Shown piece after piece: positions 3,947 to 4,135 of a stretch of 18,012 nucleotides of DNA. The translations under genes were made by a program, and so were the position numbers. Source of the DNA: a virus. Below the pieces are notes generated by a model, which saw only the letters and a program-made list of their open reading frames with translations, did no database searches and was not told where the DNA came from. The stretch lies in UHGV virus genome UHGV-0176909; one strand, given 5' to 3'. Position 1 is the first letter of the stretch. Every line of letters begins with the position of its first letter.

Positions 3947-4135
3947 GTGAAGAAAAAATTTGTAAACGTTGCAAAGTGCGCAATTTTTATATTTTTTATG
4001 ACCTTTTACGGATTTAGTGCCGGAGAAGGTTTCGATCGTGATGCCAATGCATTCAGTTTCTTTTGTCTGTCTATAGTGGTCATAATTGTATGGGTGGAAT
4101 TAAAGCAAACATTGTTTCATGTGCTAGGGAAATAA
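3947..4135 (+). CDS. Small hydrophobic protein, 62 aa, GTG start; two predicted hydrophobic segments
   Basis: Strong Shine-Dalgarno TAAGGAGG (3933..3940) 6 nt before GTG at 3947. Translation MKKKFVNVAKCAIFIFFMTFYGFSAGEGFDRDANAFSFFCLSIVVIIVWVELKQTLFHVLGK has a basic N-terminus and two hydrophobic stretches. Its stop (4133..4135) lies 17 nt from the convergent gene 16 stop. Confidence 0.55.
   Translation: MKKKFVNVAKCAIFIFFMTFYGFSAGEGFDRDANAFSFFCLSIVVIIVWVELKQTLFHVLGK

Follow-up and report, generated by a model that had tools for sequence, protein, structure and literature searches.

Organisation of the locus

The window (the whole 18,012-nt stretch of DNA analysed here) comes from a P22-like (Lederbergvirus) prophage and is reversed in orientation with respect to the P22 map. 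The P22 layout, tailspike-ant-sar-arc-mnt ... gene 16-20-7, can be followed across it, with the following features:

~655 to 1, minus strand: N-terminus of the tailspike (P22 gene 9 homologue)
778-1659, minus strand: ant
1658-1724, plus strand: sar antisense RNA (Rfam RF00262, 71.6 bits), between arc and ant, as in P22
1725-1889, minus strand: arc
1977-2231, plus strand: mnt
2231-2767, plus strand: ClpP-like serine protease gene, 178 aa (Pfam CLP_protease, E = 4e-12)
2822-3790, minus strand: P63C-domain gene, 322 aa (phrog_2384)
3947-4135, plus strand: small ORF, 62 aa
4153-6066, minus strand: gene 16 homologue, 637 aa, ejection / DNA transfer protein (phrog_770 'DNA transfer protein', E = 3.5e-245)
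6066-7430, minus strand: gene 20
7441-8133, minus strand: gene 7
Right end of the window: small terminase gene

RefSeq names the gene 16 product 'P22-gp16 family phage DNA ejection protein'; its identity to P22 gp16 is 51% overall and 57% over the C-terminal 150 aa. In P22-like phages the stretch from gene 16 to the tailspike gene is a variable region, the 'ant moron', which lies within the late operon (PMC2629481), and the late transcript crosses the whole of it before reaching the tailspike gene (PMC2629481; PMC8022706). An initial annotation of the window described the small ORF as being transcribed head-on into the end of the late operon. This has to be revised: the tailspike gene lies further downstream, starting at ~655 on the minus strand, and because the late transcript must cross the ant moron to get there, gene 16 is not the end of that operon. 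Since the ant moron lies inside the late operon, the head-on arrangement is the normal layout on the sieA/mnt side and no peculiarity of this ORF.

The ant moron of this prophage carries two unusual passengers, the ClpP-like gene and the P63C-domain gene. The start of the former overlaps the stop of mnt and, whilst it is labelled 'head maturation protease' in phage phiv205-1, its location makes such a role unlikely. The presence of the sar RNA suggests that the immI region of the prophage is intact; it was the sole Rfam match over the window, with nothing found at the small ORF. A 12-nt box, TAATGCAAGCA/TGCTTGCATTA, occurs four times at 3789-3883, between the divergent P63C-domain gene and small ORF; the copies include a perfect inverted pair separated by 16 nt and a direct pair separated by 56 nt. 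These boxes resemble operator sites and are candidate binding sites for some regulator.

Coding status and start codon of the small ORF

The ORF comprises 62 codons followed by TAA (4133-4135), begins with GTG at 3947-3949 and encodes MKKKFVNVAKCAIFIFFMTFYGFSAGEGFDRDANAFSFFCLSIVVIIVWVELKQTLFHVLGK. A Shine-Dalgarno sequence, TAAGGAGG, is located at 3934-3941, leaving a spacer of 5 nt (TTGGT), one less than the 6 nt given in the initial annotation. The same annotation took the strength of this ribosome-binding site as an argument that the ORF is real. The single occurrence of TAAGGAGG in the window compares with a chance expectation of 0.3, at least one copy being found in 53 of 200 shuffled sequences, and is not significant by itself; what makes the site meaningful is its conservation in other genomes. 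Residues 1-62 of the protein match positions 1-62 of the 62-position profile of phrog_21338 (function unknown) with E = 4.3e-45, the only PHROG matched at E ≤ 0.1. Where pairs of family members have unsaturated synonymous sites, dN/dS is 0.15-0.29 (Nei-Gojobori); between more distant pairs synonymous sites are saturated, yet the alignment remains nearly free of gaps. Judged by the PHROG match, the constant length, the dN/dS values and the synteny described below, the small ORF is a genuine gene.

Three comparisons support GTG 3947 as the correct start, as the initial annotation had it. Serratia relatives have ATG at the equivalent codon. The N-terminal extensions of versions called at 86-103 aa in some assemblies are mutually unrelated and are therefore artefacts of ORF calling. 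Finally, phage 611R6 is 99.4% identical to window positions 3780-3949 (P63C gene and intergenic region) and the similarity ends exactly at the GTG, beyond which 611R6 has a different gene, encoding an hkcB-like membrane protein from the same GTG. Loss of the ORF from an otherwise identical cassette, which the initial annotation had taken as grounds for refuting the ORF, is thus seen in 611R6; with another membrane-protein gene starting from the same codon, however, this amounts to cassette exchange and is not evidence against coding.

We also considered the upstream ATG at 3872, from which the RefSeq PGAP pipeline calls an 87-aa product (WP_021547413.1) where it does not omit the gene altogether. 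This start was rejected: extensions in other genomes are not homologous, the codon sits within one of the 12-nt repeat boxes, and both the mosaic junction in 611R6 and the Serratia ATG favour 3947. The gene is also carried by phages phiv205-1, JEP4 and UPF_BP1 (MN340231, MT740315 and NC_047875), at 97-98% protein identity, and is unannotated in all three.

Membrane character and predicted fold

The protein has a basic N-terminus, MKKKFVNVAK (K2, K3, K4 and K10), and a GRAVY score of 0.85. Two hydrophobic stretches follow, separated by a short acidic loop, G-E-G-F-D-R-D:

3977-4024, plus strand: core of hydrophobic helix 1, residues 11-26, 16 uncharged (hydropathy/charge map; AlphaFold2 helix 2-25)
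4049-4096, plus strand: core of hydrophobic helix 2, residues 35-50, 16 uncharged (hydropathy/charge map; AlphaFold2 helix 30-60)

From an 11-sequence alignment AlphaFold2 predicts a helical hairpin made up of these two helices, with a mean pLDDT of 84.6. The hydropathy map and the hairpin model bear out the earlier description of a small membrane protein with a basic N-terminus and two hydrophobic segments. In the cell the two would be transmembrane helices, forming a hairpin in the inner membrane with the N- and C-termini probably cytoplasmic and the acidic loop probably periplasmic, a topology that we infer. Residues K10, F14, M18, G22 and W49 are invariant across the family, and I46, I47, E51 and K53 nearly so; the most conserved motif, I-I-x-W-x-E-[IL]-K, lies at the end of helix 2.

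Database searches with the window protein gave no match in Pfam (E ≤ 10) or NCBIfam, and the hairpin model matched nothing among BFVD (viral) and PDB structures at E ≤ 0.001, helical hairpins being too generic for such a comparison to be informative. No PADLOC-DB 2.0 family was matched at E ≤ 0.1; P22 SieA likewise has no PADLOC model.

Distribution and synteny of the family

Relatives of 62 aa with 79-82% identity are found in Salmonella and Serratia fonticola in a large protein database, and a profile search of 1.8 billion representative proteins added seven more distant members at 32-53% identity. As called these are 61-98 aa long, six of them falling between 61 and 66 aa. The family is found in E. 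coli, Salmonella, Serratia and metagenomic P22-like prophages, with Serratia fonticola the sole match in a scan of one genome per species.

Every context examined (L007-L026) has the small gene downstream of a gp16 homologue, the two being convergent. They are directly adjacent in all except L021 and L022, where a 95-aa ORF lies between them; most gaps measure 10-45 nt, and in L020 the two genes overlap by 4 nt. Upstream neighbours vary, with C2-like repressor, Arc/Mnt-like, Rap1a-like and Fic genes all represented, and in three divergent phages gene 16 and the tailspike gene have nothing but the small gene between them. In none of the loci examined with the 62-aa gene (L007-L026) was a sieA gene (PF26849) seen.

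Two of these neighbours deserve mention in their own right. In the Serratia fonticola prophages L012-L015 (4644-4991) a gene for a Rap1a-like protein (PF18602), a periplasmic protein resembling type VI effector immunity proteins, is on the same strand as the small gene, which follows 1-9 nt downstream, and in metagenomic contig L017 (1410-1883) a Fic-domain gene precedes the small gene. As cargo of the same moron, both are additional candidates for a part in conversion or defence.

Identity between small proteins does not correlate with identity between the neighbouring gp16 C-termini (Spearman -0.01): small proteins that are 79-82% identical adjoin gp16 C-termini only 16-17% identical. There is thus no sign of co-evolution with a presumed gp16 target.

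The 'orf62' reported for phage L (PMC8022706) was considered as a possible instance of the same gene and rejected, as tblastn gave no match in either L or ST64T. Phage ST64T (L147, NC_004348), which is 99.9% identical to phage L, has an unannotated gap between gene 16 and mnt that holds a 100-aa ORF on the late strand (37927-38229, plus strand) with a lipoprotein-like N-terminus (...VFLAGC...); this ORF is unrelated to the 62-aa family.

A leader shared with P22 sieA

The P22 gene that converges on gene 16 is sieA. Before it stands the ~35-nt leader GGTATCCTGCnCAAAACTAAGGAGGTTGGT, and the window ORF has the same leader, followed as in P22 by the GTG start. The sequence immediately before the GTG reads ...CATGGTATCCTGCACAAAACTAAGGAGGTTGGT in P22 sieA and ...CATCTGGTATCCTGCTCAAAACTAAGGAGGTTGGT in the window, where the relevant elements are as follows:

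3909-3914, plus strand: TATCAT, alternative -10 candidate (aligns with TTTCAT, the -10 of PsieA, a putative P22 promoter)
3916-3946, plus strand: conserved leader TGGTATCCTGCTCAAAACTAAGGAGGTTGGT, containing TGGTATCCT and the Shine-Dalgarno sequence TAAGGAGG
3916-3924, plus strand: extended -10-like sequence TGGTATCCT (judged on conservation only)

The leader is identical or nearly so before P22 sieA, epsilon34 gene 14 (an hkcB homologue), the hkcB-like gene of 611R6 and the 62-aa gene in E. coli and Salmonella. Across 40 distinct upstream sequences from viral contigs, conservation begins ~35 nt before the GTG (CATnTGGTATCCTG...), and beyond about -35 these same sequences fall into at least nine unrelated classes. 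The P22 record places the annotated sieA promoter immediately upstream of the common leader. We infer that the leader acts as a promoter; a scan of 3700-4400 for consensus sigma-70 -35/-10 elements gave no promoter and picked up neither TGGTATCCT nor TATCAT.

The stop codons of the small gene and gene 16 (4153-4155, minus strand) are separated by 17 nt (4136-4152). The initial annotation gave this distance correctly and was also right that no recognisable terminator intervenes: none was found in 3700-4400, folding of the RNA just 3' of the stop is not unusual (z = -1.49), and terminator-like sites deeper in gene 16 are no commoner than in shuffled sequences.

An exchangeable cargo slot beside gene 16

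Scanning IMG/VR for AAAACTAAGGRGGTTGGTGTG identified at least 120 contigs with one match each (L027-L146), and 119 viral contigs were sorted according to the cargo they carry. In the 119 matches listed, the ORFs that begin at the leader GTG belong to 13 families, unrelated to one another by BLASTP, with one family per contig. Contig counts among the matches listed are:

hkcB-like protein, 107/109 aa: 21 contigs
129-aa signal-peptide protein: 17 contigs
62-aa family: 13 contigs
109-aa protein, helix plus coiled coil: 13 contigs
SieA: 11 contigs
75-aa two-helix protein: 9 contigs
103/106-aa N-terminal-helix protein: 9 contigs
140-aa soluble protein: 8 contigs
116-aa four-helix protein: 6 contigs
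99-aa signal-peptide-like protein: 5 contigs
149-aa single-helix protein: 4 contigs
68-aa YobH-like protein: 2 contigs
42-aa protein: 1 contig

Among these matches, all 13 families are followed by a convergent ORF of 600-740 aa at a distance of -4 to +63 nt, and 12 of the 13 have an N-terminal hydrophobic segment, either a helix or a signal peptide. On our assumption that one quarter of proteins possess such a segment, the chance of finding it in 12 or more of 13 families is below 1e-6. SieA and the 62-aa family are alternatives at one locus. SieA is the only one of the 13 with a known function; as the 11 families other than SieA and the 62-aa family are also uncharacterised, the slot may hold envelope functions besides exclusion.

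The far end of the slot is also marked, by a short motif between the stop of the small ORF and that of gene 16:

4136-4145, no strand assigned: junction motif CCATCCATGG

The consensus CCRTCCDTGG occurs exactly once in 22 of 26 loci (L001-L026), always at the junction between the cargo gene and the gene 16 stop. It follows the stops of the 62-aa gene and of sieA, falls within the ...NPSMDD C-terminus of the hkcB-like genes and, in viral contigs, lies 0-6 nt past the stop of several cargo families. Kept as it is across unrelated cargo and unrelated gp16 C-termini, the motif could be a recombination junction or a signal in the late transcript.

On sequence grounds, then, the 62-aa gene looks like a moron: cargo varies between the conserved gene 16 and tailspike gene, and the gene has a leader and ribosome-binding site of its own.

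Comparison with known systems

SieA blocks injection and possesses three to four transmembrane helices and a cytoplasmic motif, FxRYPxEAxxFNK; it is found in 22 of 66 sequenced P22-like phages and exists in three sequence types that behave alike despite about 25% mutual identity (PMC10883804). [quoted passage not shown] SieA (PF26849, phrog_7745) and the 62-aa protein occupy the same slot between gene 16 and gene 9, convergent with gene 16, and both are small hydrophobic membrane proteins with the same leader, Shine-Dalgarno sequence and GTG start. The differences are equally plain: the 62-aa protein has two helices where SieA, at 164-200 aa, has three to four, it lacks the FxRYPxEAxxFNK motif (the resemblance of its G-E-G-F-D-R-D loop is loose and not significant) and, of the two, it is SieA for which an exclusion phenotype has been shown (PMC10883804).

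Homology between the two was rejected. BLASTP aligned residues 11-32 with the region of the SieA conserved motif at E = 0.29, and hhalign gave a probability of 0.14% for the family profile against that of SieA type A.

Amongst known injection blockers, T4 Imm comes closest to the 62-aa protein in size and predicted topology (a small helical hairpin of the inner membrane). Imm, by contrast, is an early-expressed protein of a lytic myovirus and unrelated in sequence, so the resemblance may be read as a functional analogy only; the Pfam (E ≤ 10) and PHROG (E ≤ 0.1) searches described above gave no Imm-type similarity. HK97 gp15, the product of a moron lying in a virion-gene operon of a temperate phage and active in the prophage, is reportedly a small inner-membrane protein blocking genome entry by related phages. 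Unlike the gene described here, it belongs to a siphovirus, lies among tail genes and is unrelated in sequence.

Other cargo, comprising HK620 hkcB / epsilon34 gene 14 and phrog_5962, 8100, 7294, 10450, 2651, 19844 and 21022, shares the slot, the leader, the GTG start and the convergent orientation with respect to gene 16. Nearly all of these families have an N-terminal hydrophobic segment but, unlike the 62-aa hairpin, they comprise single helices with a coiled coil, signal-peptide proteins and a four-helix protein. A literature search for hkcB returned unrelated papers only. We also asked whether the small protein might be a class II holin: neither Pfam nor PHROGs gave a holin match, and a holin gene would be expected in the lysis cassette on the late strand, whereas the small gene is encoded opposite to the late operon, in the interval from gene 16 to the tailspike gene.

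Possible functions of the 62-aa protein

A membrane-protein gene at the sieA locus, behind the sieA leader and as an alternative to sieA, argues for a non-homologous functional analogue. Going by its position only, the 62-aa protein would be an inner-membrane protein expressed from the prophage that, like SieA, blocks DNA injection, the reading that we favour and find plausible if somewhat short of probable. The gene would then be an independently expressed moron cargo in the sieA slot, transcribed against the silent late operon from the short portable leader that would also drive P22 sieA. In the lysogen the hairpin would confer superinfection exclusion by hindering the gp7/gp20/gp16 conduit through which incoming P22-like phages deliver their DNA, or else by acting on a host membrane factor that the conduit requires. 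The gene 16 product, the convergent neighbour of the small gene, is a possible target on the model of SieA. Because the late operon is off in the lysogen, the head-on arrangement would cost nothing there, whilst in the lytic cycle the late transcript would traverse the small gene in antisense, as it does sieA and mnt in P22.

The gene might instead serve lysogenic conversion of another kind, its product being a prophage envelope protein that acts on a host inner-membrane transporter or receptor, defends against unrelated phages, or alters host fitness or stress tolerance. DicB is a small protein that modulates a host inner-membrane transporter or receptor. With 13 unrelated cargo families in the slot (among the matches listed), signal-peptide and YobH-like proteins included, one common target for all is unlikely, and the company the gene keeps, the type VI immunity-like Rap1a gene in Serratia and a Fic gene on one metagenomic contig, fits such a role, as does the lack of co-variation between the small protein and gp16 type. 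We nevertheless consider it somewhat unlikely: members as distant as 32% identity still strictly adjoin gene 16, also in phages that have no other gene before the tailspike gene, the leader is the one found at sieA, and the sole cargo of the locus to have been characterised blocks injection (PMC10883804). The size, the pronounced hydrophobicity and the strong ribosome-binding site would also suit a small membrane toxin, whether type I-like or holin/abortive-infection-like, restrained by antisense transcription from the convergent gene 16; across a 17-nt gap with no terminator the two transcripts would indeed overlap. The late operon is silent in the lysogen, however, which would leave the toxin without its antisense partner in the very state that calls for restraint. 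A single helix is usual among type I toxins, against the two predicted here. [quoted passage not shown]

An accessory role in lytic growth, with the small protein acting as a membrane partner or chaperone for gp16 or protecting the producing cell from gp16, would account for the constancy with which the gene adjoins the 3' end of gene 16 in phages that have diverged widely (the 95-aa ORF in L021 and L022 being the one interruption). Transcription of P22 sieA, moreover, goes up on induction (PMC10883804), and the leader may for this reason also be active late. We give such a role little credence, since the gene and the late operon are on opposite strands, most P22-like phages do without it, having other cargo or none, and nearly identical small proteins sit beside unrelated gp16 C-termini (16-17% identity). 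That the ORF might be untranslated, the conserved sequence being merely regulatory or junction DNA, is a suggestion that could draw on its absence from the annotation of three phage records and many RefSeq genomes and on the insignificance of TAAGGAGG alone within the window. It is nevertheless extremely improbable, given that relatives as distant as 32% identity preserve length and frame, with synonymous sites saturated, dN/dS is low where it can be measured, GTG or ATG occupies the same start codon, the PHROG match is full-length and the hairpin is confidently predicted.

Injection blocking by an analogue of SieA can also be put in a broader and more speculative form, which we offer tentatively. 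The sieA position would be a hypervariable locus for single-gene cassettes, bracketed by a portable ~35-nt promoter/RBS/GTG leader on one side and the 10-nt 3' junction motif on the other, into which at least 13 unrelated genes for envelope proteins would have been swapped. The 62-aa hairpin would then block injection as a minimal protein without homology to SieA, in effect a fourth and much smaller kind of 'SieA', acting on the gp7/gp20/gp16 conduit or on its host partner.

Significance

The ORF family itself is not new: it has a PHROG entry, and some annotations have it as a 'hypothetical protein'. The accessible literature (subscription titles aside) yielded no description of the small gene's use of the sieA leader and slot, of its conservation beside gene 16 down to 32% identity, or of a leader fronting 13 mutually exclusive cargo families, 12 of them with a hydrophobic N-terminal segment. 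As regards annotation, several phage records and many RefSeq genomes leave the gene out; annotations that include it place the start at an upstream ATG within an operator-like repeat. If the 62-aa protein does exclude phages, it would be among the smallest injection blockers known and would offer a simple handle on how the conduit formed by the P22 ejection proteins crosses the inner membrane. The leader and its 13 cargo families mark out a compact and easily searchable hotspot for new superinfection-exclusion and envelope-conversion genes in the prophages of Enterobacterales.
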